From: a virus
Taxonomy: Duplodnaviria; Caudoviricetes
Virus record (IMG/VR): IMGVR_UViG_3300021399_000009
Coordinates: 44,607 to 108,606 of that record
Direction: 5' to 3' (one strand)
DNA length: 64,000 nucleotides
The position numbers and the translations under genes were made by a program. This document shows, in pieces, positions 38,751-64,000 of this stretch; the first letter of the stretch is position 1, and each line of letters begins with the position of its first letter. Under the pieces are notes generated by a model, which was not told the DNA's origin, made no database searches, and saw only the letters and a list, made by a program, of their open reading frames with translations.

Positions 38751-38755
38751 CTATC

Positions 38756-44693: not shown

Positions 44694-44694
44694 C

Positions 44695-45891: not shown

Positions 45892-45906
45892 AAAAATTCC
45901 TCCCCA

Positions 45907-46086: not shown

Positions 46087-46123
46087 ATTTATTTCTCTCC
46101 TTTTCCACATAATCGCATTTTTT

Positions 46124-48282: not shown

Positions 48283-48337
48283 TTCCACCTTTATAATTTG
48301 ATACGGTTATCCAACCGCCCTTTGAAAACAAAGGATA

Positions 48338-48541
48338 TTAACCAATTGTGCCGTAAGTTTCTTTTACAACTAAATTAGAATTAAACTCATTTATAAGTTC
48401 AATTATACTGGTATCTTCACAGGCGTAATAATTATGTCTTTTTGATTTCTGAGACATTGTTCGAGCAACAGGAAGTTCTACTCTGTTATCATTAAGTTTT
48501 TTTCTTATGTACTCAGCCTGTGCTTTGGTAACTTTAATCAT
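48338..48541 (-). CDS. Small basic protein, first gene of the late region
   Basis: MIKVTKAQAEYIRK...KRHNYY. Confidence 0.65.
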   Translation of the reverse strand: MIKVTKAQAEYIRKKLNDNRVELPVARTMSQKSKRHNYYACEDTSIIELINEFNSNLVVKETYGTIG

Positions 48542-48580
48542 TTTTTTATTCACTACTTTCAAAATTATTTACCACATCTA

Positions 48581-48609
48581 TTGACTTTACAACTACTATG
48601 TGATATGAT
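48581..48609 (+). promoter_or_regulatory. Sigma-A-like promoter facing the RNAP gene 3' end
   Basis: TTGACT-17-TATGAT with TG extended -10. Confidence 0.55.
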
Positions 48610-48840
48610 ATAAAGGGGGGAGTGTATCTCTTTTTTGTATTCTGTAAAAAAGAGAACAAGAGGGGATTAACCCCTCTCGCCAGAGATAAAACTATATCTC
48701 TGATTATACCCGTAACAGATTTTATTCTCTCTGTCATAGGTAGGTTTTTCTTTTTGAAAACAAATAACGTATTATAGCCAAATTCTTAATGTTGCAATGT
48801 AAAAATCGTATAACGTTTTCAAAAAATTCCTGTCCACAAC

Positions 48841-51681
48841 TTACTTTCTATATTCTGATTGTTTTAAAGTCTTGAATTGTCTACGATATTTCTTATAACA
48901 ACAATCGCAAAGTTCACGCTTGGATTTTGAACCAACACTAAATTCAGCTCCACAGTTTACACATATTCTTGTAGGTGTATATTTCACAGGAATGTATTTC
49001 TCTCTCATATCATTTCTATTGGTAATAAGAGTATATCTTTCCTGACATTCCTTACATCTGCAAGTATTAGTTCCTTTACGAACTATTATTTCTTCACCAC
49101 AATCAATGCAATAGCTTATATCTATTTCACTATCAAAATCTTTCATTAAGTGCTGATACATTGTATTGCCAAACATCTCCCAGAACATTTTCTTTTTACC
49201 AGTTGGATTTCGATTAAATATTTCTTCAACAATGTTATCGACTATATCATGCCAATTGGTTATGCCTATCTCTTTACAACGAGAATAGATTTTATTCCTT
49301 GCACCATTAATCACGAATCGGTAATCTTTTACAACTTCGTCCTGTTTCTTGTCAAAACGTGAAGAATTGATAACGTCCTTGTAAATACCAACCACCTTTG
49401 AATTGAATCTGCTATCAGTCATAGGACTGCTAAGAAATTTTGTATAATCAAACTGTGTTTCAAAGTCATATTTGCCGTATTGTATTCTTGGTATCTTAAT
49501 AACTTTAGCAATATTATTTGCAGGAGTGTCTGTTAATGTATCTGTCTTTTCTTCTTCATAGTTCTTTGCGTACTCAAAGAAACGTGGTACTTTAACATTG
49601 AGATACTTGCTTATAATATAATTGATATTGTCTGGTCGAGTTGGCATATACATTGTCTTAAAATAGTCAATTTGAAAATTGTTCTCTCCTACAAGAAGTT
49701 TTATTACTTTTACCTGTTCATCAGTTAAACTCCAATCGTTGTTTCTTCCTATGTTCCAAATCTTAGTAATTGCATTGCTATAATAGCCTATGCTTTTACT
49801 ATTGAAAGCCATTTCCATACATCTGAAAAGTGAATCGTTATTAACTGGTGTACTATCAGCTTTTTTCATTTCATAATACAAGGGACATATATTTAGTTTT
49901 TTAATGACTTTCTTTGCAGCTTTAATTATTATATCATTGTTACACACAAACAGATGGTCGCCATCCCAATCGAGTGCCATTATGCGTGACATAAAATCGT
50001 GAGAGTTCGTATAGATAGCATTGGTAGTAAACCACTCCTGTATATTATTTGTTTCTATGCAATGCTCACAATAAAGATGCGGACTACGCAAACAATCAAG
50101 GTCGATGCCGTTATCAAATAACCTACAGCTTACTTCGCCAGCTTTTAATAAACCGTTGGGGTTTTCAATTCCCATAATCAGATGTTCACAGAAAGCATAT
50201 AGGTCTGGAACAGCAAACGTATAGTTTCCTTCTACCAAAAACTTTGCTGAATATAAATCCCTTACCAGACTTTCTTTTTTTGATTTAAGCTGCTCTTTTA
50301 TGTATTTGTCTTGCAACATCTCAGGATATTCATAAAGGCATTTTTGAAAAGGCGATTTGTTTTTATTGCTTTCTACTGCACCAAAGATTTCAAGTATATG
50401 TTCTTTGTCAACTTTTTTATTCTTGGTAGATACGCCAAGGTTTAATATTTCATCAAGATTTGGCTGAGACAGATTTAAGATTTCATCATCGGTTAAACAA
50501 CGCAAGGTTTGAATCATTTGATAGTTTATGTTTCTCACGTTGTCAAATTCTTCATCTTCTTCATTACCGATACACGCTTCACAATTATATTTTTTAAAGC
50601 GTTCTTTGTAGTCATTCCAATCTTTGTAATACTTCCACATCTTAAATTGGGATTTTGTAAATATGACTTGTATATCTTCCTCGATGATATTATGTTTCAC
50701 ACCATAAATATCCTTGACCACAGGAGAACAATCATTGACCTCAATAAATTTTCTAAAGTCAAATACTCCCAACAGTCCTTTAAACCACGGCAGTCTGATA
50801 ACAAAATCCTTTGAGCTAATACTCGGTAACATCATTCCGCATCCATCGTTCTGCTCCATTGGTAGTGTTCTAACTCCGTGTGTTATCTCATAAGTGTCGT
50901 AGTCTATATAATCTACCTCACCAGTTACCTCGTTCTGAAAATCATCTACGACAATAGACTTATCAATATCAAAACCTTTCCAAGTTTTAGACATAGAGCT
51001 ACACAAAGAAACATAAGCAAGATACTTAGCTGTATTACAACCACCGCAATCATTAATCTCCTTGATGCTTAATCCAGCCATAATCTTATTCCAATGTTTC
51101 TCTTTTAAATCTTTGCGTATAGCTACAAATTTTTTGTCCTTGGTTTGTCCTGCTGATGCTGTAAAAAATTCATATTCATATCCATCGTACATAAATCCAT
51201 TCTTAATCAAAGATTCCATAATACCAGTATAATAAACACGAATAATACAAATCTCAGGATTAAACTTATTTTTATTAAGACCAAGAGTTCTTGTTAACGC
51301 ACTATCGCTTATAGTGACCTTCTTGCCACTACTAATGCCATAACCATTTCTTTTTGCTATTTTTTCATATATCAATGTTCGCTTGGTATCTTTATTAGCA
51401 ACAATGGCATCTCTGAATTGATTCTTCAACTCGCTAAGAGTTTTTTTAATTTCTTGTATGCGAGGTTTATTTTCTTCTTCCCAATCTGAAATTTCATCAC
51501 TGTTTATCTGAGTTTTTATTCCATTAACCTTTTTATATTTCTTTTTTGGACATTCCTTTTCAAGAAGATACTTTTCAAGCTGTAAGCTTTCAATCTTATT
51601 CCATAATTCTTTTTCGCCATTATCTTCAAGAACAAAGTCTTGTGTATCAACTCCAAGCACATAATACAGTTTGCTATTCAA
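48841..51681 (-). CDS. yonO: YonO-like single-subunit DNA-dependent RNA polymerase with C-terminal Zn ribbons
   Basis: TASAGQ, DGCGMMLP, IRLPWFKG, IFTKSQFKMWKYY, RSPH, catalytic DWDGD; TTG start after GGGAGG; upstream of the late genes. Confidence 0.9.
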   Translation of the reverse strand: MNSKLYYVLGVDTQDFVLEDNGEKELWNKIESLQLEKYLLEKECPKKKYKKVNGIKTQINSDEISDWEEENKPRIQEIKKTLSELKNQFRDAIVANKDTKRTLIYEKIAKRNGYGISSGKKVTISDSALTRTLGLNKNKFNPEICIIRVYYTGIMESLIKNGFMYDGYEYEFFTASAGQTKDKKFVAIRKDLKEKHWNKIMAGLSIKEINDCGGCNTAKYLAYVSLCSSMSKTWKGFDIDKSIVVDDFQNEVTGEVDYIDYDTYEITHGVRTLPMEQNDGCGMMLPSISSKDFVIRLPWFKGLLGVFDFRKFIEVNDCSPVVKDIYGVKHNIIEEDIQVIFTKSQFKMWKYYKDWNDYKERFKKYNCEACIGNEEDEEFDNVRNINYQMIQTLRCLTDDEILNLSQPNLDEILNLGVSTKNKKVDKEHILEIFGAVESNKNKSPFQKCLYEYPEMLQDKYIKEQLKSKKESLVRDLYSAKFLVEGNYTFAVPDLYAFCEHLIMGIENPNGLLKAGEVSCRLFDNGIDLDCLRSPHLYCEHCIETNNIQEWFTTNAIYTNSHDFMSRIMALDWDGDHLFVCNNDIIIKAAKKVIKKLNICPLYYEMKKADSTPVNNDSLFRCMEMAFNSKSIGYYSNAITKIWNIGRNNDWSLTDEQVKVIKLLVGENNFQIDYFKTMYMPTRPDNINYIISKYLNVKVPRFFEYAKNYEEEKTDTLTDTPANNIAKVIKIPRIQYGKYDFETQFDYTKFLSSPMTDSRFNSKVVGIYKDVINSSRFDKKQDEVVKDYRFVINGARNKIYSRCKEIGITNWHDIVDNIVEEIFNRNPTGKKKMFWEMFGNTMYQHLMKDFDSEIDISYCIDCGEEIIVRKGTNTCRCKECQERYTLITNRNDMREKYIPVKYTPTRICVNCGAEFSVGSKSKRELCDCCYKKYRRQFKTLKQSEYRK

Positions 51682-51885
51682 TTTATTTAATTCCTCCCAT
51701 ATCACAAAATCATAGTGAATATTAATGTGAAATCCACATTATACCTAATAAACCAAGTGATAATGATATTGACATTACAAGTGCTAACGTAGCAAGATAA
51801 GATAAAACAAGGTCGTGTTCTTTTAATGCAAATTTTAATGCTTTGAATATTACTCCTTGAAACCCTGTTATTATTCCCCAAATTA

Positions 51886-52074
51886 TTAGCATCCGCATAC
51901 CATTGTTCCTCTATCCTTAAATACTTCTTTTCTTTCAATCCATCTGTCTGCCATAGTATCGCTGATAGGTGATAAGTCATAATCCTCACAGCCATAATAT
52001 TCCGCAAGTTCTTTTAAGGCAGAACCATTAGGAGTACCCATTGCAAGTATTTCAAGCATTTTGTGTATTGTCAT
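51886..52074 (-). CDS. Hypothetical protein
   Basis: AAGGAAGTG RBS. Confidence 0.55.
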   Translation of the reverse strand: MTIHKMLEILAMGTPNGSALKELAEYYGCEDYDLSPISDTMADRWIERKEVFKDRGTMVCGC

Positions 52075-52194
52075 TTTTCTTCACTTCCTTTTTTATTTCT
52101 TCAAGAGTTAATGTCCTACAGTCCTTATCGGTTCGTACAACTGATAGAGGACAGCTCAGACAATGTATCTGTTGGCTACATATCTGTTCTCGTG

Positions 52195-52434
52195 TCATTT
52201 ATGTAATCTCCTTTCATAGAAAGCATAGGCATCGTGCATACACTGTGTAGTCAATTCCCATTTGTCATCTATCCAAACATGATATACAGGTGTAGTCCAA
52301 TTATAACAAGGTACGCCATTGCCTATTCTTGTCTTGGTCATATACAACCCCGTTGTATCGTTGCTGCTTTCGAGCTGATATAAACATCGAGTTTTATTGT
52401 CGAAAGTAGAAGCCCATCTGCTTAGATTTGTCAT
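52195..52434 (-). CDS. Hypothetical protein
   Basis: GAGGAG RBS. Confidence 0.65.
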   Translation of the reverse strand: MTNLSRWASTFDNKTRCLYQLESSNDTTGLYMTKTRIGNGVPCYNWTTPVYHVWIDDKWELTTQCMHDAYAFYERRLHK

Positions 52435-52474
52435 TTCTATCTCTCCTCAGCTATATGATTTATACATTGATAGA

Positions 52475-52606
52475 TTAGCACCAATCATCTACATACTGCT
52501 TGTAGTCCGGATGACCATAGAACTCGTCTGAGCTTTCTTGATTGTCTATGACAGTAGAATCTGTATAATCTGTAGTCTGGATGTAGTTTATGTAATCCTT
52601 AGTCAT
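52475..52606 (-). CDS. Small acidic peptide (43 aa)
   Basis: GGAGGTG RBS overlapping the upstream gene end. Confidence 0.45.
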   Translation of the reverse strand: MTKDYINYIQTTDYTDSTVIDNQESSDEFYGHPDYKQYVDDWC

Positions 52607-53552
52607 TATCGTTCACCTCCTTAATAAGAAATATATCTTCGATTCCGGTTGCCTGTGCTATCTTTTCCTTATTAGCATATATACTATACAGTGCAGGATT
52701 AACACACAGGTATTCTTTGATAACATCGTTCTTGGCTGCTCTGACTGCGACCAACACCCCTCGGTTATCTCCGTTCTTATCTGGGTACTGAATCTTTAAT
52801 AACTGATTGACAAATCGCTTCGAGTGAGAGATATTCAATCCAAGTTTAGCACATAGCGTATCAACCGACATCTTTGTAATTTTTGCTTTATCAGTTTCCC
52901 AAGGGTTTTCGCAAAGCACATTATAGGTCAAATTAACATAAGGGAGTATCATATACATATAAGCTAACGTTTTATGAGAATCAATCGTGGCGTGTTCATA
53001 CAAGAAACGAGTTGAGTATATAAACAACTTGGCTGCTCTTTGGTCTTTGGCTTTCTGTAATTTACCTTTGCCAAATATATTAGAGTTAATTTGAAATCCT
53101 TGTTCATCTTCTATAAGGTAATTGTATCTCTTGGCTTCTCTAAGGAATGACTTAAAAGAAGTGTCTCCAAGTTTTAATAACGATTGCAATTGTCCCCTTG
53201 ATAGAAGTTGTCCATTGTCATAAGCTATGTAATTGTCCTTATTGACGTAGGTTGCCAAATAAACCAATCTGCTTATAGTTGGGTTGTTCAGATTATCAAA
53301 CGAACGCTCGGATGGTATAAAGTAATGCCACACATAACTCCCTCCTTCACTTATACTATTGTCATAATCGCTCTCGTCTTGTTGCTTAATGGCATAATGT
53401 TTTCGTCCATAGTTCTTGCGGCTGTTGTATTCTTCTTCCGAAAAACAAGTAACAACGCTATTCTCAGGAGGTTCTTTAACTTCGCCTTTGTCATTAATAA
53501 TCGCTTTGACACGTTCCATTGCATCATTCCTTTCAATTTTGGTTTTCGCCAT
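52599..53552 (-). CDS. Tandem winged-helix DNA-binding protein, probable replication initiator (RepL-like)
   Basis: Two wHTH-like halves ending QINSNIF and LCVNPALY; direct repeats over its start; next to the large non-coding region. Confidence 0.6.
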   Translation of the reverse strand: MAKTKIERNDAMERVKAIINDKGEVKEPPENSVVTCFSEEEYNSRKNYGRKHYAIKQQDESDYDNSISEGGSYVWHYFIPSERSFDNLNNPTISRLVYLATYVNKDNYIAYDNGQLLSRGQLQSLLKLGDTSFKSFLREAKRYNYLIEDEQGFQINSNIFGKGKLQKAKDQRAAKLFIYSTRFLYEHATIDSHKTLAYMYMILPYVNLTYNVLCENPWETDKAKITKMSVDTLCAKLGLNISHSKRFVNQLLKIQYPDKNGDNRGVLVAVRAAKNDVIKEYLCVNPALYSIYANKEKIAQATGIEDIFLIKEVNDND

Positions 53553-53594
53553 TTTGCGACCTTTTTGGGGGTGTTTTTCGCCATTTTGCGACCT
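53543..53594. repeat. 20-bp direct repeat (iteron-like) over the initiator start codon
   Basis: TTTTCGCCATTTTGCGACCT at 53543-53562 and 53575-53594. Confidence 0.85.
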
Positions 53595-53707
53595 CACCCA
53601 ATTTGCAGTTTTTCCCGAAAAATCGGGCTAAACTGGCGTTTTTTGAAAAATCCGTTCTTTTAGATTTAGTAAACCCCATACGCTTGCCAAGGGTACAGAC
53701 ACTTGAA

Positions 53708-53742
53708 CTATATGATTTATTCAATCTATATGATTTATACAA
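53708..53742 (-). promoter_or_regulatory. Tandem operator-like motifs
   Basis: TTGTATAAATCATATAG and TTGAATAAATCATATAG, 18-bp period. Confidence 0.75.
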
Positions 53743-53781
53743 TGAACAAATATAAAAATAGCTCACCTGTGTACTAATCCT

Positions 53782-53810
53782 ATTATATCATAATATTTAT
53801 ACTTTGTCAA
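53782..53810 (-). promoter_or_regulatory. Sigma-A promoter of the leftward rep-RNAP operon
   Basis: TTGACA-17-TATAAT, TG extended -10. Confidence 0.88.
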
Positions 53811-53834
53811 GAGAAAAAATAAAAAAATAAAAAT

Positions 53835-53992
53835 TCCCCCTCTGGGGGACGAACGAGCGTAGCGAGTGAGATAGGGGGATATATTATAGAGTTATAGAAT
53901 TATAATTTAATATTTACTATTTAATATTTACTATATTGGGGACAGGGACGGTAAACTTCGCTACGCTCAGTTGACCTTTGCCCTTTCCCCAA
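53835..53992. other. Stem-loops carrying inverted GAGCGTAGCGA motifs (primosome/ssi-like)
   Basis: GAGCGTAGCGA 53855-53865 and TCGCTACGCTC 53958-53968, the latter in the loop of a G/C-rich stem. Confidence 0.55.
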
Positions 53993-55102
53993 ACCCCTTT
54001 TCCTAATTTAATTATCTTATATATCTGTTATTAGAGTGTATATTATTTTTCTGATTTATTAGCGTATTATTGGGATTTATTAAGGATTTGAAAATTTGGT
54101 ATGATTATTTATGCGATATTTTAATAATTAGTTTATGGCTATATATAGAGAAGTGAATGATAATTAATATGGGAAGATGTGGGGATAATGGAGTGGAATG
54201 AGTTAGCGTGAACTGGTGTGAATGGAGTAGAACACCTTACCCAGTATTCCGGCAGCGAAATTTGATTTAAAATGTAAACATACCCCGTATATAATTTTTA
54301 CAAAGTGCCGTATTTGCCTATTTACCGCCGTTTAATTTCCGTTTTGTTCATTTTAAGTAATTAAGATATTTAATAAAAAGAACGACTGTTCTATTTGATG
54401 GTAATCATTTAAGTGAAAAATTAATTAAACATTGGTTATTTAAGCACTTAATTTAAGAGCTTAAACGCAGCTTAATTAAGTTATTATGTGATTAAACAAT
54501 TGAGATTAATTTATCTGATAGTTTAATTAAATTTATACTTAAAAGATTAACTCCCTTTAATTATTTTGTTGCAATTGCAACACATAACAATAATAAACAT
54601 GAATATTCATATACAAAACGCTCAATAAATCCCTATAAATAGCCAAAAATCAATATACATATAACAAATATTCATAAAAATGCAAAAATATTCACTATTA
54701 ATTAAATAATAAAACATAAAAAACTGCTCAAAATCAGACTTGAAAAAAACGCTCAAAAAATGTTTATTTTTTCCCTATATATAGCCATTTATGGCACTTC
54801 AAAAAAAGTCAAAAAATAGCCGTTTTTCTCAGCTCAGACAGCCAATTGTTGAAAACTCATTAAAAACTGCACAAAAATATTTACTTCTCATTGTATAATA
54901 TGCACAACACGTCTCTTTTATATTATAATAGTATACTACTCATACTATGACGAACAGTATAAAACAAATATAATATTACAAACTGTATTCACACAAACAC
55001 TTTAATACACTAAAATCTTATTGCTTATTGCACAATTATTCAATTTAACACACTAAAGTTTTTTGTGCAACCATCCAAAACTAAAAAACTTTTCAAAAAT
55101 CG

Positions 55103-55131
55103 TTGACAAAGTAAAAATCATGTAGTATAAT
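55103..55131 (+). promoter_or_regulatory. Sigma-A early promoter with operator motif in the spacer
   Basis: TTGACA-AAGTAAAAATCATGTAG-TATAAT; A-tract UP region. Confidence 0.9.
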
Positions 55132-55139
55132 AGCATTGT

Positions 55140-55685
55140 AAACAAAACACGGAGCAACAAAAAGCTCCAACGTCCCGACTTGATACGGGACGCTAAAAGA
55201 ATTCAGTTAACGCCGCAAATTTTGTGGTATTACGGTATATCATAGGGGCGTACACCGTTAGTTATAATGCAAGTGTACGGGGCGTGTGCCAACGTGCCTA
55301 ATAACATGGCAGGCAGCTATTGCCAAAGTATAGCAGCCGAAAATAAACAATTTTCCGCTATAAGCGACTTGAAAAAGTTTCAACGCTTATACCGTGGAGC
55401 AGTCCACGCAAAATAAACAGTGCCGTAACAGTGCAATATCTCTTCTGTATAATCTGTACAGCGTGACAAAGTTGATGTTGTCAATAGGTACTATGTTCTT
55501 ACTGTACAATAACACTAATTTTGTGCGGTATTACCTTAAAACATAGGCGGTGAAATAAAATAGCTAATACCGAAAAATAGCTGAATAAAGGGACTTTTTG
55601 AAAAATTTTTAGGTAGTCCCGACTCTGTAAAGAGGCGTTAAGGCGTGAGCCGTATTGCGGTAAAAAATTTGTACGGACTACTAAT
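55140..55685 (+). ncRNA. Candidate large structured ncRNA / leader
   Basis: No ORF of 60 codons or more in the track; more than 12 helices including long-range ones; G-U wobbles and GNRA loops on the + strand. Confidence 0.7.
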
Positions 55686-55705
55686 TACAATAATTCTATG
55701 CTATA

Positions 55706-55734
55706 ATTATACTCAAATTATAGCATTTTGTCAA
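55706..55734 (-). promoter_or_regulatory. Antisense sigma-A promoter embedded in a hairpin
   Basis: TTGACA-17-TATAAT on the minus strand. Confidence 0.6.
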
Positions 55735-55833
55735 GCGGTATTGGAGTTAATTCTAATACCGCTATATATGTACAATTTAGCGTAAATCCGCTGAAAAGTA
55801 CAACCATAATTCTAATTTTAGGAGGTCATTATT

Positions 55834-56142
55834 ATGACAAAATTTATACTTTTTTTAGGACTGTTCGATAAAGACAGCAAAGCACAAGAGATAAGCACTC
55901 TCAATGCGTTCAAAATAGCCTCAAATCTGGTTACTGATATTGTAGGCTATGGCACTATAACTGAGGCTATGGGTATCTATACTCATGATGATGGTACTAT
56001 CGTTAATGAGCCTACACTCCGTATTGAAATAACTGGAAGTGAACTCGAAAAAATCAAGAGGCTTGCTATAGTCTTAAAACAGGCATTTAATCAAGAATCA
56101 GTCGCTCTTGAAAAGGTCAATTCAGACTTTAATTTTGTATAA
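55834..56142 (+). CDS. SAM lyase-like (T3 SAMase/DUF3574-like) protein
   Basis: G.Y....G....E.T.R.......RLA.......QESV resembles T3 SAMase GCY...EEKTVRV...RLA....EQDCV; first early gene. Confidence 0.65.
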   Translation: MTKFILFLGLFDKDSKAQEISTLNAFKIASNLVTDIVGYGTITEAMGIYTHDDGTIVNEPTLRIEITGSELEKIKRLAIVLKQAFNQESVALEKVNSDFNFV

Positions 56143-56157: not shown

Positions 56158-56244
56158 CATATAGCTAATAATGCAGAGTAGGGGTGTATTATACGCCCTT
56201 AATGCAGCCAGTCAGACGGTTACAAGCCCGTGACTAACTGTATA
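56158..56244 (+). ncRNA. Twister ribozyme, P5-type permutation
   Basis: AAUGCAGAG-[P1 hairpin AGGG.../CCCU]-UAAUGCAGC...ACGGUUACAAGCCCGU; predicted cleavage 56200/56201. Confidence 0.88.
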
Positions 56245-56269: not shown

Positions 56270-56530
56270 ATGTTAGTAAATGGCAATATTGTTGAACTGC
56301 GTCCAACAGATTCTCATAAAAGTTTTTACGGTAAAGCCCGTGTTGTTATGGCTGAAAATGGGGATAAAACTCTAATCAGCTATACAACTCCCGTTCTCCG
56401 TCTTACTTCTGACGGTAAACTGGAAAAGTTGTGGGATGGATATTCTGCCACAACTATGAGACATATAAATTCATTTTGTGACACTTTCGGTATCAACGGA
56501 GGCGGTAAAAGGTGGTGGGAAACTTTATGA
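56270..56530 (+). CDS. Conserved-looking early phage protein
   Basis: AGGAGG RBS; KSFYGKA...SY.T.V...W.GYS.TT.RHI. Confidence 0.8.
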   Translation: MLVNGNIVELRPTDSHKSFYGKARVVMAENGDKTLISYTTPVLRLTSDGKLEKLWDGYSATTMRHINSFCDTFGINGGGKRWWETL

Positions 56531-56814
56531 CACACAAATACTCTTTGCGGTATTGGATAGGTGAAACGTGGTTCAATCTAAGGGAAAATTTACCTTTCTT
56601 TGCACTCTTTTTACCACCATACCATTACAACGTCAAGGAAAATGTAAGCTGTTTAAGTTGGAATTTTGCAAATAATGTGCAATACTATTCAAGACCGCCT
56701 ACATTTTCAAAAAAGCATAACGCTGATGGAGGCTTGTGGAATTTTCTGCAAGCCTTAAAGCTACTCTGTCATATCCAAAGTAGACAGGTGCTTAATATCT
56801 TTTTGGGAGGCTAA
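56527..56814 (+). CDS. Hypothetical protein
   Basis: ATGA overlap. Confidence 0.55.
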   Translation: MTHKYSLRYWIGETWFNLRENLPFFALFLPPYHYNVKENVSCLSWNFANNVQYYSRPPTFSKKHNADGGLWNFLQALKLLCHIQSRQVLNIFLGG

Positions 56815-56818
56815 TACT

Positions 56819-57178
56819 ATGACTAAAACTGGATATTTAAGAGGCTTTAAACGTCTTACAACTGAGGAAATTTCTGAGGAAAAAGAACGCCTTAGAGCTG
56901 CTGGAATTAGACTTGATGTTGAAACTGGAAAACTCTACAACTCTAAAAATATCCCTTTGGGAATAGTTAGCGGAGTTACAACACCTACTGGAAAACAGTA
57001 CAAGATAGGCTCTCAGAATGGAAATTCTGACGTATGGTACAATGACAGATTTCTTGGTGATAACTATGCCGTATTTGTGAAAGTGGAAAAGTGCGGATTT
57101 TGGCAGCAGATAACACCATGGTATTGTCGTATTGGAAATGCTGTAAAACGTATGACAAAAATTTCACAGGAGGGCTGA
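56819..57178 (+). CDS. Hypothetical protein
   Basis: GGGAGG RBS. Confidence 0.75.
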   Translation: MTKTGYLRGFKRLTTEEISEEKERLRAAGIRLDVETGKLYNSKNIPLGIVSGVTTPTGKQYKIGSQNGNSDVWYNDRFLGDNYAVFVKVEKCGFWQQITPWYCRIGNAVKRMTKISQEG

Positions 57179-57181
57179 ACT

Positions 57182-57394
57182 ATGAAAATAACAATCGGAA
57201 ATTTTCTCGATAAAGGTTTGGAAAATGGTACTATCAAGCCTAATCAGATAGTAGCATACTATGACCATAACAATAACTTAAAATGGCTTGGAAAAGCTGA
57301 ATTTGCACCTATTTTCTTGGATTGGGCTGCACTCGACCACTATGAATATGTGGAAAATGAACTGAGAATATGGGAGGAAAAACGTCCATGTTAA
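57182..57394 (+). CDS. Hypothetical protein
   Basis: AGGAGG RBS. Confidence 0.75.
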   Translation: MKITIGNFLDKGLENGTIKPNQIVAYYDHNNNLKWLGKAEFAPIFLDWAALDHYEYVENELRIWEEKRPC

Positions 57395-57582
57395 TCAAAG
57401 ACCTAAAAATAGGGGAATATTTTACCCTTAAACCGATAGAAAATCCAACGGAAAAACAAGTCTTTATCCGTGGAGAATATGACCGCACTGAAAAGAAATT
57501 TGAGTGCGGTCGTTTTGATGATATAAGCTATACACGTTATCTCAGCGGAAAAACTGAGGTATACACTGACTTTACATTCTGA
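57388..57582 (+). CDS. Hypothetical protein (SH3-like small beta protein)
   Basis: GGGAGG RBS; IKDLKIGEYFTL. Confidence 0.75.
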   Translation: MLIKDLKIGEYFTLKPIENPTEKQVFIRGEYDRTEKKFECGRFDDISYTRYLSGKTEVYTDFTF

Positions 57583-57595
57583 GGAGGATATAACT

Positions 57596-57727
57596 ATGGG
57601 AAAAATCTACACTGTTAAATGCGTTGACTATGGCTGGACTGTCAAAATTCGTACACGGAAAAACTATGCCATTGGTGACTTATGTATCGTCAATGGCTGT
57701 ATCTGTTCAATCATTAAGGAGGGATAA
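57596..57727 (+). CDS. Small protein (43 aa)
   Basis: GAGGAGG RBS; absent from the ORF track. Confidence 0.6.
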   Translation: MGKIYTVKCVDYGWTVKIRTRKNYAIGDLCIVNGCICSIIKEG

Positions 57728-57730
57728 ACT

Positions 57731-57964
57731 ATGCCAACTAAAAAGGAAATTTGCACAAATAATAAGTCCATAGCTTATTGGAGTGGCTGCAACGGACTGG
57801 AAATTAAGCACATAGAGTACGGCATAGATGATTATGTGTACTTTGTCGCTGGAGCTTGGAACGGAAAACCCACATACCATAAGGCTAAAGTTCATTACGG
57901 AGAACGTGCGTATTTTAGATACCACGGATATACCGTCTATCTCGATGAATGTATCAGAATGTGA
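57731..57964 (+). CDS. Hypothetical protein
   Basis: AAGGAGG RBS. Confidence 0.75.
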   Translation: MPTKKEICTNNKSIAYWSGCNGLEIKHIEYGIDDYVYFVAGAWNGKPTYHKAKVHYGERAYFRYHGYTVYLDECIRM

Positions 57965-57974
57965 GGAAAAAGCT

Positions 57975-58226
57975 ATGTATAGAAATTTTCATATATTCAA
58001 CACTGGAAATTCCTTTGTGGTCAAAGCTGATAGCAAGCGTTTTGGAAAACAGGCTATTGTTTATGAGGACTATGACCTTAAAAAATGCGTATCGTGGATA
58101 TATTCACATTACCGTAATAATAATGGAAAAATTATAACAAACAGAAGGTGGACTGACCGTATATATGCAATTGCTATGTCAACCTGTAATTGTGCGGATA
58201 ATCCTTGGTTTAAGGGAGGAAAATAA
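57975..58226 (+). CDS. Hypothetical protein
   Basis: GAGG RBS; VKADSKRFG. Confidence 0.7.
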   Translation: MYRNFHIFNTGNSFVVKADSKRFGKQAIVYEDYDLKKCVSWIYSHYRNNNGKIITNRRWTDRIYAIAMSTCNCADNPWFKGGK

Positions 58227-58228
58227 CT

Positions 58229-58438
58229 ATGAATAAACGTCAGAAGAAAATGAAATGGAACAAAATTCACTGGAATAGATATATGCGTTTTTGTGATTTG
58301 GCTATGCGTGTATCCGTACAGGCTGATATTATACAGCGTATGAGTAATTCCTCCGAAAATGATAAAATAAGAATATATCTTAATGAAATCAAAAAAGAAA
58401 TGGAAAATATACGATATGATATGACAGGAGGAAAATAA
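58229..58438 (+). CDS. Hypothetical protein
   Basis: GGGAGG RBS. Confidence 0.7.
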   Translation: MNKRQKKMKWNKIHWNRYMRFCDLAMRVSVQADIIQRMSNSSENDKIRIYLNEIKKEMENIRYDMTGGK

Positions 58439-58439
58439 T

Positions 58440-58811
58440 ATGTTACACATTAATTCAAAACCAATCACGGAAAAAGCTCAGATAGGCTGTCTGAACTATA
58501 GCTCTATCTTTTCGGAACTTATTCACGCTGCAATTGTATGTGAATACTATGCAAGCGATGTATTCATAGACTTAAAGCGGATAGAGTGTGCTATCACGGG
58601 TGCGGAAAATAAAGTGTTCTATCTCGGTTATCGTGATAATGGTGTTGATGGAAAAACTTTTGTCAAGTCACGACTTTCGGAAAATAGATACTATGAATAT
58701 ATCCGTTTGTACAGACTGGAAATATCTTCTGACGGAGAATATATTACAGTGGAACTCAAACGTATATCAAGCTATGATGCACATAAGGAACTTTGCGAGG
58801 AGGAAAAGTAA
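58440..58811 (+). CDS. Hypothetical protein
   Basis: AGGAGG RBS; YASDV.ID...G.RDNGVD. Confidence 0.75.
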   Translation: MLHINSKPITEKAQIGCLNYSSIFSELIHAAIVCEYYASDVFIDLKRIECAITGAENKVFYLGYRDNGVDGKTFVKSRLSENRYYEYIRLYRLEISSDGEYITVELKRISSYDAHKELCEEEK

Positions 58812-59360
58812 ATGAAAAATATTATATTCTCAAACTATTATGACAGTGACAGGGAAAAAGCAACAAGAGAGTTCTTGCTGGAAGATAGAGGCGAGGACAA
58901 CGGCTGGGAAACTATTGACGATATTCCAGACAGTGAAGTGTGGGATGAAATGTCATTCAATGAACAGATGGACTGGGAAAGTGTTACAAGCGAACTGGAA
59001 AACTTCTTTGAGGGTAAGGAAATTCTTGTCATCGGAACTGTAGGCAGATGGAATGGCACATACTCTGCTGGAAAAGTTATATCATATAACGAACTTCATA
59101 AGTGCTGGTCTGACTGCGACTATGTGGAAATCTATGACGAGGACGGTCATATGCACATCAATGCAAGTCACCATGACGGAAATAATCACTTTGAAGTCAA
59201 GATTCTTACGGGAAAAGGCAGAAACTACTATTCACGTTGGAATGAGAATTGGAGTGATTCACGGTCAGAACAGGAAATTCACACAAAACTTGTGGAAAGT
59301 TCACGCTATACCCACATACCACACTTTGCAAGGAAAGTTTACGGCTGTAAAACACGATAG
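58812..59360 (+). CDS. Acidic hypothetical protein
   Basis: GAGGAGG RBS; GRWNG, HHDG motifs. Confidence 0.8.
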   Translation: MKNIIFSNYYDSDREKATREFLLEDRGEDNGWETIDDIPDSEVWDEMSFNEQMDWESVTSELENFFEGKEILVIGTVGRWNGTYSAGKVISYNELHKCWSDCDYVEIYDEDGHMHINASHHDGNNHFEVKILTGKGRNYYSRWNENWSDSRSEQEIHTKLVESSRYTHIPHFARKVYGCKTR

Positions 59361-59433
59361 GAAAAAGTATAATGGGCACTTGCAAGTCCCATTACCATAT
59401 ACGATAAGGAAATTTTTAAAGGAGGAAATTACT

Positions 59434-59850
59434 ATGGTAAACAAATTAAGTAAAATATTCCCTAATGGCTGTACATCAAGACAGAGGGATAATCTTATCG
59501 AGGAAATATGCAGTCAGTACGGAAATGTAGGCAATTGGAAAAAATGGTCTGATTCTGCTAAACAACTTTATGAGGAAATGAGTGCATTAAATATGCTTGA
59601 AAGTTGCTTTGCGTATGGTGGAATATCTACATTCTATGACCAGCATAAAGCTTGGGAATATTGTGGAGAGGGCAGTCATTATGACCATTACTTAGCGGAC
59701 TATATTGAAGTCGGTGGAAATAAGAAAGAATTTGATAAAATGATAGAAATTCAGACTAAATATCTCACGGAAAAATGTGAAGTAGTATACGCTGGAACTG
59801 ATGGCGAGGGACTTTCGTACAATGGAATAAGGGAGGTATCAGCAATATGA
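59434..59850 (+). CDS. Hypothetical protein
   Basis: AAGGAGG RBS; TDGEGLSYN. Confidence 0.75.
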   Translation: MVNKLSKIFPNGCTSRQRDNLIEEICSQYGNVGNWKKWSDSAKQLYEEMSALNMLESCFAYGGISTFYDQHKAWEYCGEGSHYDHYLADYIEVGGNKKEFDKMIEIQTKYLTEKCEVVYAGTDGEGLSYNGIREVSAI

Positions 59851-60032
59851 GAATAACAGTATATTTTAGCAATGGAGCTATTAAGGAATATTCTGATGTT
59901 AAAGATACTCGGAAAGTTTGGAGGGATGTATCAAAACTCTGTAAGGCTTATGGAAAATTTAGAAGTCACTTCATAAACATTTGCGGAACGGAATGGAAAG
60001 TAAGAGTAATAAAGGTTGTCAAGGAGGATTGA
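59847..60032 (+). CDS. Hypothetical protein
   Basis: GGGAGG RBS, ATGA overlap. Confidence 0.7.
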   Translation: MRITVYFSNGAIKEYSDVKDTRKVWRDVSKLCKAYGKFRSHFINICGTEWKVRVIKVVKED

Positions 60033-60035
60033 GCT

Positions 60036-60200
60036 ATGACGGTATTGGAAATATTAAAAAAGCGTAGAGAAATCTACACAAAGGAACTGGAAAATAAGTA
60101 TATTGGACAAAAACGAAAAGCTGATACTGAAAGTAGATTATCAGAAGTGGAAAACTTAATATTCATTATCACTACAAACAATATTGATATAGTCAAGTAA
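60036..60200 (+). CDS. Small protein (54 aa)
   Basis: AAGGAGG RBS; absent from the ORF track. Confidence 0.6.
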   Translation: MTVLEILKKRREIYTKELENKYIGQKRKADTESRLSEVENLIFIITTNNIDIVK

Positions 60201-60213
60201 GGAGGAAATTATT

Positions 60214-60903
60214 ATGTTAAAAGGAATGATTAAGGAATACACAGAGCTTATGACTTCTCTCAATGAGAGTAAGGAAAAAGCCGATGCCATGAATAAGAAA
60301 ATGTTTAAGACGGACATCAAAGACAGGCTTGCCGATAAAGACGGTTGGAAAAAGCAGCTTGATGAATACGCTCATATGGAGAATACAATAAAGCATAAAC
60401 AGGAATATCTGTACATTCTCCAATACAATATGTTCAATGCTTTTATAGTTGAGAATATGGAAACGATAAGGGAAATTATAAACAAGTACGCTAATAAGCC
60501 TATCGGGGAAAAGCGTAGAGGAAATTTGTATGATGAAATTCACGCCCTTATTCCGAAAGAAGTTATGTATATTTTCAGCATAAGCATTAACTACGGAACT
60601 TTCGGAGGAATAGAAATATACCTCAACTACAAGAATAACCGCCATTGGGTATGGATAATTGATAGCAGAGAGGGTAACACATATTCAGAACTGACAGAGG
60701 AAAAAGTCTCTGACATAATCAATAACGCAAAGGGAAAAATCGTCAATGATATTGACAAATACATTGCTGATACCTATGAAAAAATAGCTGTCCTCAATGG
60801 GAAAATAGAGGAAGTTGAAAAGCTGTATTCAGAAGTTAGGGATGCAGCCGATGAAATGAATATATGGTCATATGACACGACTGTAAAGAAGTATAGAATA
60901 TAA
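60214..60903 (+). CDS. Coiled-coil hypothetical protein
   Basis: AAGGAGG RBS. Confidence 0.8.
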   Translation: MLKGMIKEYTELMTSLNESKEKADAMNKKMFKTDIKDRLADKDGWKKQLDEYAHMENTIKHKQEYLYILQYNMFNAFIVENMETIREIINKYANKPIGEKRRGNLYDEIHALIPKEVMYIFSISINYGTFGGIEIYLNYKNNRHWVWIIDSREGNTYSELTEEKVSDIINNAKGKIVNDIDKYIADTYEKIAVLNGKIEEVEKLYSEVRDAADEMNIWSYDTTVKKYRI

Positions 60904-60958
60904 AGCTATTGGAAAAAAGTAACAAATAAATATTACATTATTTGTACAATGTAACCTA

Positions 60959-60987
60959 TTGACAAAGTACAAATAGTGTAGTATAAT
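60959..60987 (+). promoter_or_regulatory. Sigma-A promoter with operator motif in the spacer
   Basis: TTGACA-AAGTACAAATAGTGTAG-TATAAT; second degenerate copy at 60998-61014. Confidence 0.9.
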
Positions 60988-61031
60988 ACAATTACCGAAG
61001 AACAAATCGTAAAGTGATTAAGGAGGAAAAC

Positions 61032-61355
61032 ATGGCAAAGGAAAAATACTTTTACAAAAAATACTTTTACATTGTTGAATATCAGGGCGGTGCTGAATAT
61101 GAACCTGCGGAGGGCGGATATTATGTACCGGTGACGGAAGTTTCCGCAGTATCTACAAAGCGTTATAAGGAAAAACACGCAAGGCGAGAATTAAAAAAGG
61201 CTATTAAAGAAGCATCCGAATATTATGGCGAACCTACTTATGTGGGAAGATATAATGCCGTATGGTCTACCGGAAAATATGTAGGCGATACATTTGAAAT
61301 TCGCATGACTGGCTGTCCTGCGTTACATGAACAGCACTATTATGGATATTGTTAA
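61032..61355 (+). CDS. Hypothetical protein (YEPAEGGYY motif)
   Basis: AAGGAGG RBS. Confidence 0.8.
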   Translation: MAKEKYFYKKYFYIVEYQGGAEYEPAEGGYYVPVTEVSAVSTKRYKEKHARRELKKAIKEASEYYGEPTYVGRYNAVWSTGKYVGDTFEIRMTGCPALHEQHYYGYC

Positions 61356-61371
61356 TTAAGGAGGAAATGTT

Positions 61372-62268
61372 ATGAATACACCATTATCAAATCTGTTAAA
61401 GGAAAATAGCAAAGCGTTACAGGGACTTCACGCTATTGCTGATATGGACTTTCAGAAGCCATTTACCATAATAGAGTGTACTGGAAACTTTACATACAAC
61501 TCTATTCTTAATGTGTTCGGAAAACCTGACCTTGATGAAGTCAATATATTTGTAATGTACAAGTCATCTAAGAGCTGGGATGCAAACTATAATTATCTCG
61601 TTCACCTTATCAAGGGAGGAAAATTTGAGAGTCAGAGAGGGGAAATTGAAGGCTATGAGTCAGTTAGTGGCTGGCGTTGGTTCGATACTGCAATAGGTAA
61701 AGGAACTTTTGAGAAAATAAGAAAAGACAAGAATTGCCACTACTGGATAATTGCACAGGAACGGAAATATGCTGTACAGTCTGAGCTTAAAGTTGTGGAT
61801 TATTCCGTAAGATACAGAACAAAAATAGACTATGGAAATTATTATGCGATACCGTATCACAAAAATGGTGATTGGTATTATGACAATGTATGTGATTCAT
61901 TATCAAAGTATAACTTTGATAAATCAGGCTATACGTCACTCGTCAATAATTATGATAACAGAGTACGGAAACTTAAAGCAGAACGCTCCGCTGCCGAGGC
62001 TGCAAAGTTTGACAATACGGAAAAGCTTAGAGAGTTCACTGAGCGTATTAATCATTGCAACGAGGCATTGCAGATTATTCTCGCAGGAAATTATTTGGAT
62101 ATTGACTATGAGAAAATCTCAGATGCCATACGTTGTCTGCGATTTGGAAAACATTTTTATAAACAACTTAAAGCAAACAACTTTACTTCCATGAGAGATA
62201 TTAATTATACTTTGGAAAGATTGGAAGATGAAGTTGGAAGTGCTGAAAAGCATTTGAAGGGAGAGTAA
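61372..62268 (+). CDS. Hypothetical protein
   Basis: AAGGAGG RBS; DKSGY motif. Confidence 0.8.
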   Translation: MNTPLSNLLKENSKALQGLHAIADMDFQKPFTIIECTGNFTYNSILNVFGKPDLDEVNIFVMYKSSKSWDANYNYLVHLIKGGKFESQRGEIEGYESVSGWRWFDTAIGKGTFEKIRKDKNCHYWIIAQERKYAVQSELKVVDYSVRYRTKIDYGNYYAIPYHKNGDWYYDNVCDSLSKYNFDKSGYTSLVNNYDNRVRKLKAERSAAEAAKFDNTEKLREFTERINHCNEALQIILAGNYLDIDYEKISDAIRCLRFGKHFYKQLKANNFTSMRDINYTLERLEDEVGSAEKHLKGE

Positions 62269-62269
62269 A

Positions 62270-62527
62270 ATGAAAAATAAAAAAATGGAAAATATAATTA
62301 ATAAACTGCTTGATTCCGCATTGAATGATGCGGAGTCTGCTCTCAAAAATAAAAAGGGACTTAATAATGACCTTGTATGCAAAAACTATTATCACTCTAT
62401 GGGGGTATATCATGGAATTTGTTCGGTCTTGGAAAAGATTTCAATAGACAAGTATATAAAACGCTTTGAAAATGACAGACTCCGTATGTATGATATACTC
62501 CAAAAAGCTGATACTCTAAACTTATAA
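62270..62527 (+). CDS. Hypothetical protein
   Basis: GGGAG RBS. Confidence 0.7.
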   Translation: MKNKKMENIINKLLDSALNDAESALKNKKGLNNDLVCKNYYHSMGVYHGICSVLEKISIDKYIKRFENDRLRMYDILQKADTLNL

Positions 62528-62553
62528 ATAAAGAAAAAAACAGGAGACAACAA

Positions 62554-62745
62554 ATGAAGCACTATCGCTTAAAGGAAAATATTAAACAGGGAATATTCCT
62601 GATAGCATTAGGTTGCATCTGTCATAAGGTAGGAGCGGACGGAGCAGCAATTATAATGTGGTTTCTGGGAACAATAATATTCCTTGGAAAAAAAGAGGAG
62701 GAAGTCAATGACTCAGAAGCAGAGAGAAAATTGTCTCAAAGTTAA
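62554..62745 (+). CDS. Small two-TM membrane protein
   Basis: AGGAG RBS; two hydrophobic segments. Confidence 0.65.
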   Translation: MKHYRLKENIKQGIFLIALGCICHKVGADGAAIIMWFLGTIIFLGKKEEEVNDSEAERKLSQS

Positions 62746-62950
62746 ATCTGCTTTGATTGACATTTTCGACAACGGAAGATTAACAAAGTATCTTCCTACA
62801 AGTTATCTCGCATTTGAATTGGCGAGAACATACAATCATATAATTAAAAATGAACCTGTGGAAACTATCAATAAAGAGCTTAAAGACTTCTACGAAAAGA
62901 ATGGGTTCACAATCAAAAACAAAGGTATAGGCTGGACAATCAGCTTATAA
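62708..62950 (+). CDS. Hypothetical protein
   Basis: GAGGAGG RBS. Confidence 0.65.
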   Translation: MTQKQRENCLKVKSALIDIFDNGRLTKYLPTSYLAFELARTYNHIIKNEPVETINKELKDFYEKNGFTIKNKGIGWTISL

Positions 62951-62980
62951 TAAATATTGAATTTTTAGGAGGAAAATATT

Positions 62981-63991
62981 ATGACAAAGGCAAACATTTC
63001 TTGGAACATTAATCAGATAGTAAAGGGTATGAACAATGGAACTATCCGCTTTGACAATGCTATTCAGAGAGGGTATGTGTGGGACAAAAAGAGAGCATCA
63101 CTTCTTATTGATAGCGTACTCAGGGAATATCCTGTACCGCCTATTTTCACAATCAAGACAGAGGAAAAAATCAAGGTTAAGAGTAAGGAAGTTTCTGTCT
63201 ATGACTGCATAGACGGAAAGCAGAGGTCAACTACATTCAAGTTGTTTATGGAAAATGCTTTTAAACTGGAAGGACTTGAACCAATTATTCAGTCAGACGG
63301 TTCGGAAATTGATATAAATGGACTGACCTTTGAAGAACTTGACGAGGAAATGCAGGATGCTATTAAATCATATACGTTGACAGTTTATTACTTCTCAGAC
63401 ATTACCGATGATGAAGTTGCGGAAATGATGTCAAGACTGAATAATGGTAAGGTACTGACTGGAACGGAAAATGCACGTATCAAAGCAAAGCAGCTTGACA
63501 CTATTAAGGAACTTGCAAGTCATAATCTGCTGACAAACTACCTTACGGAAAAAGCCATTAAGGGATATGTCAATGAGGACATCGTAATCAAGTTCGCACT
63601 TCTTCTTAGCGAACAGACGGAACTTTCAAATAAGAATGTTCGTGAAGCATATGAAACTTATAGTTTTGGAGAAACCATTTGTAAGAGTATCAATGATACT
63701 ATGGACTTTGTTCTTGAAGCTATCGAGGATAGCACTGATGACAGGAAGATTATCAAGCGTATGACTTCAAAGGCAAATCTGATAACTATTCTGTATGTGG
63801 CTCACGAATATCTTATCAATGGAAATTCTGATGTGAGTGAGTTCGCTGATAGACTGGCTGAGTTCTTCAATGGAACTGAGGGAGCTACTATTTCGGAAGA
63901 TTATAACGATGCTTGCACCAATGGAACAATGCGTAGTGCAAATGTACTTACAAGGAATGACGAGTTCTACAAGTATGTAATAGGAGAATAA
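62981..63991 (+). CDS. Stand-alone DUF262 (ParB-like, GmrSD N-terminal type) protein
   Basis: QRGYVW, LIDSVL..YPVP, IDGKQR, RLNNG..LT. Confidence 0.88.
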   Translation: MTKANISWNINQIVKGMNNGTIRFDNAIQRGYVWDKKRASLLIDSVLREYPVPPIFTIKTEEKIKVKSKEVSVYDCIDGKQRSTTFKLFMENAFKLEGLEPIIQSDGSEIDINGLTFEELDEEMQDAIKSYTLTVYYFSDITDDEVAEMMSRLNNGKVLTGTENARIKAKQLDTIKELASHNLLTNYLTEKAIKGYVNEDIVIKFALLLSEQTELSNKNVREAYETYSFGETICKSINDTMDFVLEAIEDSTDDRKIIKRMTSKANLITILYVAHEYLINGNSDVSEFADRLAEFFNGTEGATISEDYNDACTNGTMRSANVLTRNDEFYKYVIGE

Positions 63992-64000
63992 TATAACATT

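Follow-up and report, generated by a model that had tools for sequence, protein, structure and literature searches.

What would lead a phage to crowd a single five-base word, GGAAA, onto one strand of its early genes and to avoid it on the same strand elsewhere? The question is posed by the last 64 kb of the 108,606-bp IMG/VR record IMGVR_UViG_3300021399_000009 (positions 44,607 to 108,606), from a virus of the Caudoviricetes; this stretch of 64,000 nucleotides is called the window here, and positions are those of the window unless marked as genome. A first reading of the letters, the original prediction, had taken the word for a signal of fixed polarity, superimposed on coding sequence close to the putative genome end, and had offered a translocase or loading motif, a Chi-like site and GGA sites for an RNA-binding protein as candidates. 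Our analysis describes a block of early genes, R, in which the word is enriched on one strand only, is evenly spaced and is selected beyond what coding accounts for. The same strand is purged of it in the two other gene blocks, B (rightward, replication and nucleotide metabolism) and M (leftward, including the late genes), and the density of the word is conserved among relatives while its sites turn over.

A one-strand word field over the early genes

The enrichment from which the question arose is confirmed by exact counts. On the + strand GGAAA occurs 49 times in 56401-59400 and twice in the co-oriented control 2200-5200, the very values claimed from a hand count, and TTTCC, said to be almost missing, is found 0 and 3 times in these intervals; over 56400-63990 the two words number 106 and 1. 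Each 2-kb bin holds 19-36 copies throughout 56-64 kb and 0-3 in the rest of the window; the composition-based expectation is ~4.5 per bin. The first copy of R lies at 56,422 and the last within the window at 63,821. The enrichment does persist to the window end, as predicted, but the block does not end there: R crosses the assembly junction and continues for 3.8 kb past it, to a terminator at genome ~3,800. The whole of R carries 137 GGAAA and 1 TTTCC in 11.7 kb, that is ~1 copy per 85 bases or ~12 per kb, a density ~16 times that of the rest of the genome. Over its first 6 kb the density is 13-23 per kb, and then 5-10 per kb.

When words of 4, 5 and 6 bases were all scored without bias in windows of 8 kb, GGAAA (z 37) and GGAAAA (z 46) were the top outliers by far. 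The near-neighbour words GGAAG, GGAAT and GGATA are unchanged in R, and AGAAA and GGAGA are depleted within it. In 402 sites from three phages the word has a context in which H (not G) precedes and A or T follows, H-GGAAA-W. When a longer motif was sought, the flanks contributed little past H at -1 and W at +6. The specified content of the word amounts to 5-6 bases, about 9-10 bits, with only the GGAAA core fixed in this phage.

R comprises ~31 small co-oriented genes with strong AGGAGG ribosome-binding sites, almost none of them belonging to a known family. The copies in coding sequence (n=114) occupy all three frames, 61 as nnG GAA Ann, 36 as GGA AAn and 17 as nGG AAA, each frame being 8- to 13-fold enriched relative to the other rightward genes; 24 more copies overlap non-coding spacers, many of them as GGAGGAAA ribosome-binding sites. 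The word does therefore appear, as had been claimed, in different frames, across unrelated genes and in ribosome-binding-site spacers. The enrichment survives the codon- and amino-acid-preserving shuffles proposed as a check of it: the 114 coding copies compare with 64.2±4.8 after a within-gene shuffle of synonymous codons (z 10.6 in a repeat run) and with 38.0±5.6 when codons are permuted; if the same proteins are recoded as the other rightward (+ strand, block B) genes use their codons, 40.6±4.8 copies are expected. Since the observed number exceeds both the synonymous shuffle and the codon permutation, synonymous choice and amino-acid order are both bent toward the word. GGAAA is under selection in R and is not a product of codon usage or chance.

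The copies are evenly spread and anti-clustered. The smallest gap between two of them is 12 nt and typical gaps are 20-90 nt; no gap is shorter than 12 nt, where 17.9±3.6 are expected, and only 8 are shorter than 20 nt, against 28.9 expected. G1, a 113-kb relative, shows the same deficit (2 vs 21 below 12 nt, 6 vs 33.6 below 20 nt). Neither a pairwise-distance histogram nor a Fourier scan reveals a convincing periodicity (best power 8.5 at 35.4 nt), the sole periodic signal being a mod-3 bias due to coding. Each copy keeps roughly 12-30 bp to itself, a footprint-like exclusion zone.

Outside R the same strand is depleted of the word. In B, sense GGAAA occurs 46 times against 89.3±6.8 expected (z -6.4), which places it 7th among 877 5-mers ranked by depletion; those ahead of it contain GATC or CTAG, or are homopolymers and the like. 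In M, antisense GGAAA (sense TTTCC) occurs 11 times against 24.8±2.8 (z -4.9; 19th lowest of 882). The other strand shows no significant deficit, with 28 copies vs 28.6 expected on the antisense strand of B and 72 vs 78.8 on the sense strand of M. The deficit is seen in all three frames and along the full length of both blocks, and G1 repeats it (39 vs 72 and 6 vs 19.6). The purge tracks the DNA strand and not the transcript: the same strand is affected in B and M despite their opposite gene direction. Because one strand is hit regardless of gene direction, a one-way process over the whole chromosome is favoured. An RNA reader would purge sense strands and a duplex-DNA binder would purge both orientations, and therefore neither predicts the observed one-strand purge.

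The field in relatives and in other YonO phages

Relatives were fetched with the DUF262-like gene inside R (Table 1), which gave five IMG/VR loci at 62-100% identity where matched, the match of L007 being a 56-residue fragment; a megablast of the phage collection found no close DNA relatives. The presence of the pattern in related phages had been named as a further check, and the GGAAA block is found in all five loci, with a sharp start after the divergent gap followed by decay; in G1 it stands in mid-contig. About half of R (6.3 of 11.9 kb) aligns with the closest relative, at 89% nucleotide identity, and there 82% of the sites are conserved vs 64% for the average 5-mer. In more distant relatives site conservation is not above that of the average 5-mer. 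Density is maintained while genes and positions turn over. Taken together, selection beyond codon and amino-acid content, strand exclusivity, recurrence in relatives and the same-strand purge support the view of the word as a polar signal overlaid on coding DNA. Our literature search found no description of the GGAAA word in phage early regions.

An alignment of YonO, the single-subunit RNA polymerase encoded in M, was used to fetch 80 further loci, which were then scanned blind. Four of these (L083, L088, L096 and L098) hold ~45 copies of ACGGAAAA in ~2 kb each, and L089 carries YGGAAAA. The arrays of these five loci from other clades (about 35-45 copies, gaps of 12-90 nt, mostly non-coding) have the same orientation and the same position as R, between the yonO side and the early genes. 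Some copies lie upstream of the sole recognisable promoter, right after a terminator, as do ~10 copies of L088, which precede its sole promoter-like site and directly follow another terminator. An Rfam scan of L088-type arrays returned no ribozyme and no known RNA, and their consensus fold is a weakly structured region with alike sense and antisense energies and mostly unpaired motifs. Other YonO clades carry different repeats at the same position (TCTAG units, ATCGTTAAC operators, GCTGG runs). SPbeta has no comparable block (maximum z ~9 in the unbiased 4- to 6-mer scan), and its yonP-yonR gap holds only 4 GGAAA; the feature is therefore not general to SPbeta-like phages. The proteins that every array-bearing genome encodes and SPbeta lacks are a RecD2-like helicase, an SSB-like protein and four late-gene-block proteins without annotation; as candidates for the reader of the word they are suggestive at most.

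A second repeat adjoins the ACGGAAAA array on its yonO side. In L088 (flipped; ~16,540-16,760) and L089 (flipped; ~17,800-18,130) an array of ~300 bp consists of 11-bp-periodic (A/G)TGGA(G/A)AAAT units, in which TGTGGA... resembles DnaA boxes; there is a trace of it at 54,160-54,232 of the window and a loose purine-rich version in the SPbeta yonP-yonR gap. This array is a candidate packaging-site (pac) or origin element.

At its upstream side R is bordered by a consensus promoter that heads the rightward early transcript. From this promoter to position 56,421 the + strand has zero GGAAA. A leader of ~700 nt separates the promoter from the first early open reading frame (ORF), and a twister ribozyme stands immediately upstream of the first GGAAA-bearing gene, the block beginning right after it. 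The twister is found at the start of the block in 4 of the 5 related loci, at the same place in L004:2907-2967 (55.5 bits), L007:2911-2970 (45.8) and L006:1972-2037 (37.2, just below the gathering score). We found nothing relevant in the literature on twister ribozymes heading phage operons. Its predicted cleavage would give the whole early polycistron a 5'-OH end. A second perfect promoter lies inside R, so that R may comprise more than one transcript. The terminator that ends R is followed by a leftward Cro/C1-type helix-turn-helix (HTH) gene, divergent consensus promoters and a tyrosine-recombinase-like (MrpR-like) gene.

Table 1. Positions of the blocks, genes and signals discussed (window coordinates unless marked as genome)
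Feature	Position	Strand	Evidence or remark
Block R, GGAAA-dense early genes	genome 100,876..108,479 + 1..~3,800; window part 56270..64000	+	
Block M: YonO, terminase, portal, tape measure, tail, serine integrase	8332..53597	-	leftward genes
Block B, window end part: replication and nucleotide metabolism	window 1..8200 (all of B = genome 4.3-52.3 kb)	+	
YonO-type single-subunit RNA polymerase homologue, 954 aa	48841..51705	-	phrog_8308
AT-rich divergent intergenic region, 2 kb, between yonO-side genes and R	53700..55830	.	likely pac by SPbeta yonP-yonR synteny
Sigma-A-type promoter heading the rightward early transcript	55103..55131	+	perfect consensus (TTGACA-17-TATAAT)
First early ORF, 102 aa, upstream of twister	55834..56142	+	S-adenosylmethionine-lyase-like, PF23780, E 1.5e-4, weak, below cut-off; zero GGAAA
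Type-P5 twister self-cleaving ribozyme	56172..56231	+	Rfam RF02684, 45.8 bits vs gathering score 37.6, model positions 1-58 of 58
Internal promoter inside R	60959..60987	+	perfect consensus
GmrSD_N/DUF262-like gene inside R	62981..63991	+	PF03235, E 8.5e-21; used to fetch relatives
Strong intrinsic terminator ending R	genome 3783-3808		

Genome geometry and the weighing of explanations

The phage is placed among the SPbeta-like phages because it encodes a YonO-type polymerase homologue, which is 38-39% identical to yonO of SPbeta-group Bacillus phages (phi3T, Goe14, SPbetaL strains) and 39% identical to that of SPbeta itself (tblastn). Its portal protein is 42% identical to the portals of the SPbeta-group phages SPR and SPbetaL2. 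The gene order is that of SPbeta, with leftward late genes, a divergent gap, small rightward genes and then the replication genes, the latter also in SPbeta-like order (helicase, primase, DHH exonuclease, PolIII-alpha); a large serine integrase is encoded as well. The ends of the record share a 127-bp exact overlap, labelled 'direct terminal repeat' in IMG/VR, which we read as the signature of a circular assembly of ~108.5 kb. The overlap would then mark an assembly junction, and the window end is therefore no physical genome end.

In SPbeta-like phages the opening point lies between yonR and yonP, and headful packaging was inferred to run 'counter-clockwise', the coverage by reads declining leftward (Kohm et al., bioRxiv 10.1101/2021.11.22.469490). 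We take 'counter-clockwise' to mean toward the late genes. By synteny, the pac or genome opening point of the present phage is likely to lie in the AT-rich divergent gap. Packaging would accordingly proceed through M, then B, then R, which would be packaged last and presumably ejected first; a physical end of the DNA is thus probably close to R, which is probably also the first part to enter the cell. The proximity to a genome end that had been predicted probably holds in another form: what was taken for the end is the assembly junction, whereas the promoter-proximal side of R abuts the likely pac.

We propose, while according it slightly less than an even chance, that H-GGAAA-W is a polar signal, read on the DNA strand, that serves some one-way transaction of the genome beside pac. 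A machine circling the chromosome one way would recognise the word in one orientation only. R would be the zone in which this travelling machine is slowed, stopped or loaded, and a word elsewhere would act ectopically and hence be selected against. The signal could take two forms. It may be a brake or termination zone of rising density, met just before pac by a leftward machine, either the packaging terminase or a rolling-circle replisome feeding it, after crossing 97 kb of purged DNA. Alternatively, it may be a slow-entry or loading zone for rightward uptake of the genome from its leading end, in which the field would come first and a clear road after it. We regard the two forms as about equally likely; the nature of the machine and the effect of a site on it are inferred, as are the position of pac and the direction of packaging. 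A skew check of the kind used for KOPS (FtsK orienting polar sequences) finds one strand enriched in R only and the other neither enriched nor purged anywhere, a polarity that would suit a word pointing either toward the putative pac or away from it. Of the three candidates first put forward, the translocase or motor signal fits these data best.

Such a signal has partial counterparts. Chi, read by RecBCD or AddAB, and KOPS or SRS (SpoIIIE recognition sequences), read by FtsK or SpoIIIE, are likewise short, lie over genes in one orientation, are read by a DNA-tracking machine and are selected on one strand. They are, however, spread chromosome-wide with a skew that flips at ori and dif, whereas GGAAA saturates one 12-kb module and is purged from the same strand elsewhere; KOPS and SRS are moreover 8-mers, as opposed to the 5-6 bases of the anti-clustered GGAAA word. 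Lambda cosQ and the pause site of the T7 concatemer junction are likewise polar, and influence a terminase or polymerase in motion close to the end of the genome. They share with the proposed signal its orientation dependence, a location just before the packaging cut and a machine that arrives from one side. Both are single sites with defined partners, as against a 12-kb field of ~137 weak words for which the link to packaging is a proposal.

Several points weigh against a DNA-strand signal. The borders of the block coincide with transcript borders, the twister on the 5' side and the terminator at the other, which a signal in RNA predicts directly. In L088, ~35 of the 45 copies lie between the promoter-like site and a strong terminator with no ORF, an arrangement that resembles a dedicated non-coding RNA. 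In M, a strong antisense purge is confined to the G0/G1 lineage; in G2, whose array is half as dense, it reaches z -1.5, and the independent clade G4/G5 shows only a trend, about z -2 for the 6-mer. When a reader was sought by co-occurrence, 0 of 13 yonO-side proteins co-occurred with the arrays. The position of pac and the direction of packaging are transferred from Bacillus SPbeta-like phages, and no case is known to us in which sequence encodes a brake on a headful motor or on the entry of DNA.

The most serious rival, unlikely on balance but still alive, is an array acting at the RNA level, in which GGAAAW on the early transcripts would be a multi-copy site for a single-strand RNA-binding protein. 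The reader might be a host CsrA-like GGA reader or a phage protein, and the RNA might be a sponge, or the bound protein might coat it, stabilise it or flag it for decay at a set time; in the other clades the sites would be on a non-coding RNA of ~1.4 kb dedicated to them. The coincidence of the block with the stretch from twister to terminator, its restriction to the sense strand and the avoidance of the word by co-oriented non-early genes all suit this explanation. In this phage all R sites lie on a transcript, to judge by the predicted positions of promoter, twister and terminator. A CsrA dimer bridges two sites at least 10 and at most 63 nt apart, with an optimum above 18 nt (PMC7652899), and the gaps observed here (minimum 12 nt, usually 20-90 nt) match that range; the ~35 sites of L088 on a predicted ORF-free transcript, with motifs mostly unpaired in the consensus fold, point the same way. 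The resemblance extends to the CsrB/RsmZ-type sponge RNAs for CsrA, which offer many single-stranded GGA sites at bridgeable spacing and to which the L088-type array, seemingly a discrete non-coding unit, comes close. Here, by contrast, there is no hairpin-loop context, AAA is required after GG, and 31 coding genes are overlaid. [quoted passage not shown] Among Firmicutes a sponge RNA for CsrA is not known, the antagonist known there being the protein FliW (PMC7652899). The ~10 sites of L088 that lie upstream of the promoter, right after a terminator, are hard to place on an RNA, and the antisense purge in the late genes, with their sense strand untouched, is not explained. The original prediction had listed this rival as GGA sites for an RNA-binding protein; antisense genes embedded in R, which were sought as a means of telling a DNA from an RNA signal, occur in none of the relatives.

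Less probable still is an array for an orientation-dependent DNA-binding protein, be it a stoperator-like silencer or polar barrier that would coat the early module in the lysogen or in late infection, a set of origin iterons or accessory sites of pac. The even spacing with its footprint-like exclusion zone would be natural for such a protein. Other YonO phages have short-repeat arrays at the same place (the TCTAG units and ATCGTTAAC operators), and R is followed by a gene for a repressor-like HTH protein and by the MrpR-like tyrosine-recombinase homologue. Yet 5-6 specified bases are very few for a duplex-DNA binder, which would also be titrated by either orientation of a word that is purged in only one, and a 12-kb field of 137 sites over coding DNA resembles no origin, pac or operator set known to us. 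The closest analogy is with the stoperators of Cluster A mycobacteriophages, bound by L5 gp71, which are many asymmetric sites in one orientation relative to transcription and run through gene blocks. These are 13 bp long, number ~30 per genome, are mostly intergenic and follow transcription in both arms, whereas GGAAA, a word of 5-6 bases, occurs within codons at a density of 12 per kb and is purged according to DNA strand. A repressor of the stoperator type is also at variance with the shortness of the word and with the late genes, which are neither enriched nor purged for the sense word (72 vs 79).

A Chi-like role, in which the word would attenuate the host AddAB/RexAB helicase-nuclease at a DNA end near the early region, is very unlikely and proves the worst fit of the original candidates. 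Like the short Chi sites of Firmicutes, such as AGCGG of B. subtilis, GGAAA is a brief purine-rich word of strict polarity that runs over genes; it is concentrated next to where the ends of SPbeta-like genomes are made, and its density rises toward that region. Its orientation is nevertheless unsuited to the nearest expected DNA end. Canonical Chi is read from the 3' side on the 3'-ended strand, and an enzyme entering at the pac-cut or leading end, as placed by the SPbeta geometry, would move rightward into R and read the - strand, which has only 1 copy. To meet the word in the right orientation, an enzyme would have to come through the ~97 kb of purged DNA or start from an end on the far side of R. 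Chi theory predicts neither the purge elsewhere nor the anti-clustering, and phage clades whose YonO is only ~40% identical share the core of the word. The unbiased scan of 4- to 6-mers gave no cluster in SPbeta above the gene-orientation background (again with a maximum z ~9), and AGCGG, which was not counted singly, was not flagged.

It is scarcely credible that the word is a decoy mimicking the 8-nt 5' tag of type III-A CRISPR RNAs (ACGGAAAC). ACGGAAAA of the L088 clade does match 7 of the 8 bases of the S. thermophilus tag (PMC9297841), but exact ACGGAAAC has 1 copy in R and none in the array of L088. Position eight is A or T at 86% of the sites here and is never C in L088, and this phage keeps only the GGAAA core fixed. 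What is known to blunt type III signalling is the tag's complement in the target RNA (PMC9297841), which falls on the other strand. The antisense purge is left unexplained here too. Three further candidates were rejected: evasion of type III restriction by uniform orientation, as both orientations occur genome-wide; a Cas12a or type I protospacer-adjacent motif, enrichment of which would be counter-selected; and AbrB TGGNA pairs or DnaA boxes in R, which are contradicted by the lack of helical phasing and by misfits at positions -2 and -3.

Neighbouring elements and significance

An anaerobic ribonucleotide reductase gene, together with metagenome sources labelled gut, bovine, goat and sheep gut, points to an anaerobic Firmicute of the ruminant gut as host. 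The search for that host gave as closest genome match a contig of an uncultured Eubacterium metagenome-assembled genome, at 52% identity and without the array. In M the phage encodes two tRNA-Glu(UUC) and one tRNA-Asn(GUU) (43586-44171, - strand); the codons that they read (GAA, AAY) build the commonest in-frame forms of the word (nnG GAA Ann). A phage beta-CASP metallo-beta-lactamase nuclease with an RMMBL 'RNA specificity' domain (46124-47548, - strand; RNase J/CPSF-like) is encoded two genes downstream of YonO, with a gene for a ClpP-like protease between (47545-48288). A bidirectional hairpin with a 14-bp stem (8305-8338) stands exactly between the convergent block B and the serine integrase gene; it has no good T-run on the + strand, and read-through into the late genes may occur. 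Outside the window, an intein that includes a LAGLIDADG endonuclease domain splits the PolIII-alpha gene (genome 30247-34836; L009:10247-14836, +). A related YonO phage, L075, carries downstream of yonO (L075:14925-15523 and 16709-17113) a ROOL RNA (406 bits), a transfer-messenger RNA and 12 tRNA matches, 11 of them with full model coverage.

Other words are also unevenly used. GATC is nearly missing, with 1 copy in 108 kb here and 0 in 113 kb in G1, vs ~20-38 expected per GATC-containing 5-mer per block; G2 (L017-L022, 115 kb) has 14, 13 of them within one 10-kb stretch. Words containing CTAG and CATG are strongly avoided too, and this is classic restriction-site avoidance. GCTGG/CCAGC is nearly absent from both strands of G2 (6 copies; 1 vs 23.7 expected in the late genes alone) and of normal frequency in this phage and G1. 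It looks like a symmetric avoidance of a host restriction site, unlike the one-strand purge of GGAAA. TGACC is a second, transcript-oriented word, 2- to 3-fold over-represented on the sense strand of rightward and leftward genes of G0, G1 and G2 (e.g. 35 vs 14.4 and 39 vs 16.7). A blind scan also found GCGTC clustered locally, 11 of its 16 genomic copies falling within one 8-kb window at genome ~63,000-71,000 (window ~18,400-26,400; z 16.8).

Tentatively, and with more doubt than the strand signal itself carries, we suggest that the field represents a previously undescribed class of phage cis-signal: a dense one-orientation word field on the module that is packaged last and ejected first, which would govern how fast a one-way DNA transaction runs or where it ends (termination of headful packaging near pac, or entry of the genome in stages) and would exist in dialects, HGGAAAW and ACGGAAAA, in several gut and rumen YonO clades. 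Polar words such as Chi and KOPS show that machines tracking along DNA can take their direction from short sequences, and they are, in every described case known to us, chromosome-wide. The GGAAA case is module-specific, with a ~16-fold contrast, and has reshaped codon choice and amino-acid order in ~31 unrelated early genes; arrays of this kind recur in several clades of large temperate phages from ruminant gut samples. Once found, the reader, whether a packaging or entry motor, a component of the replisome or an RNA-binding protein, would reveal a step in the control of phage infection that lies outside the textbooks, and the array would serve as a sequence signature for early or leading-end modules in the genomes of uncultured phages.

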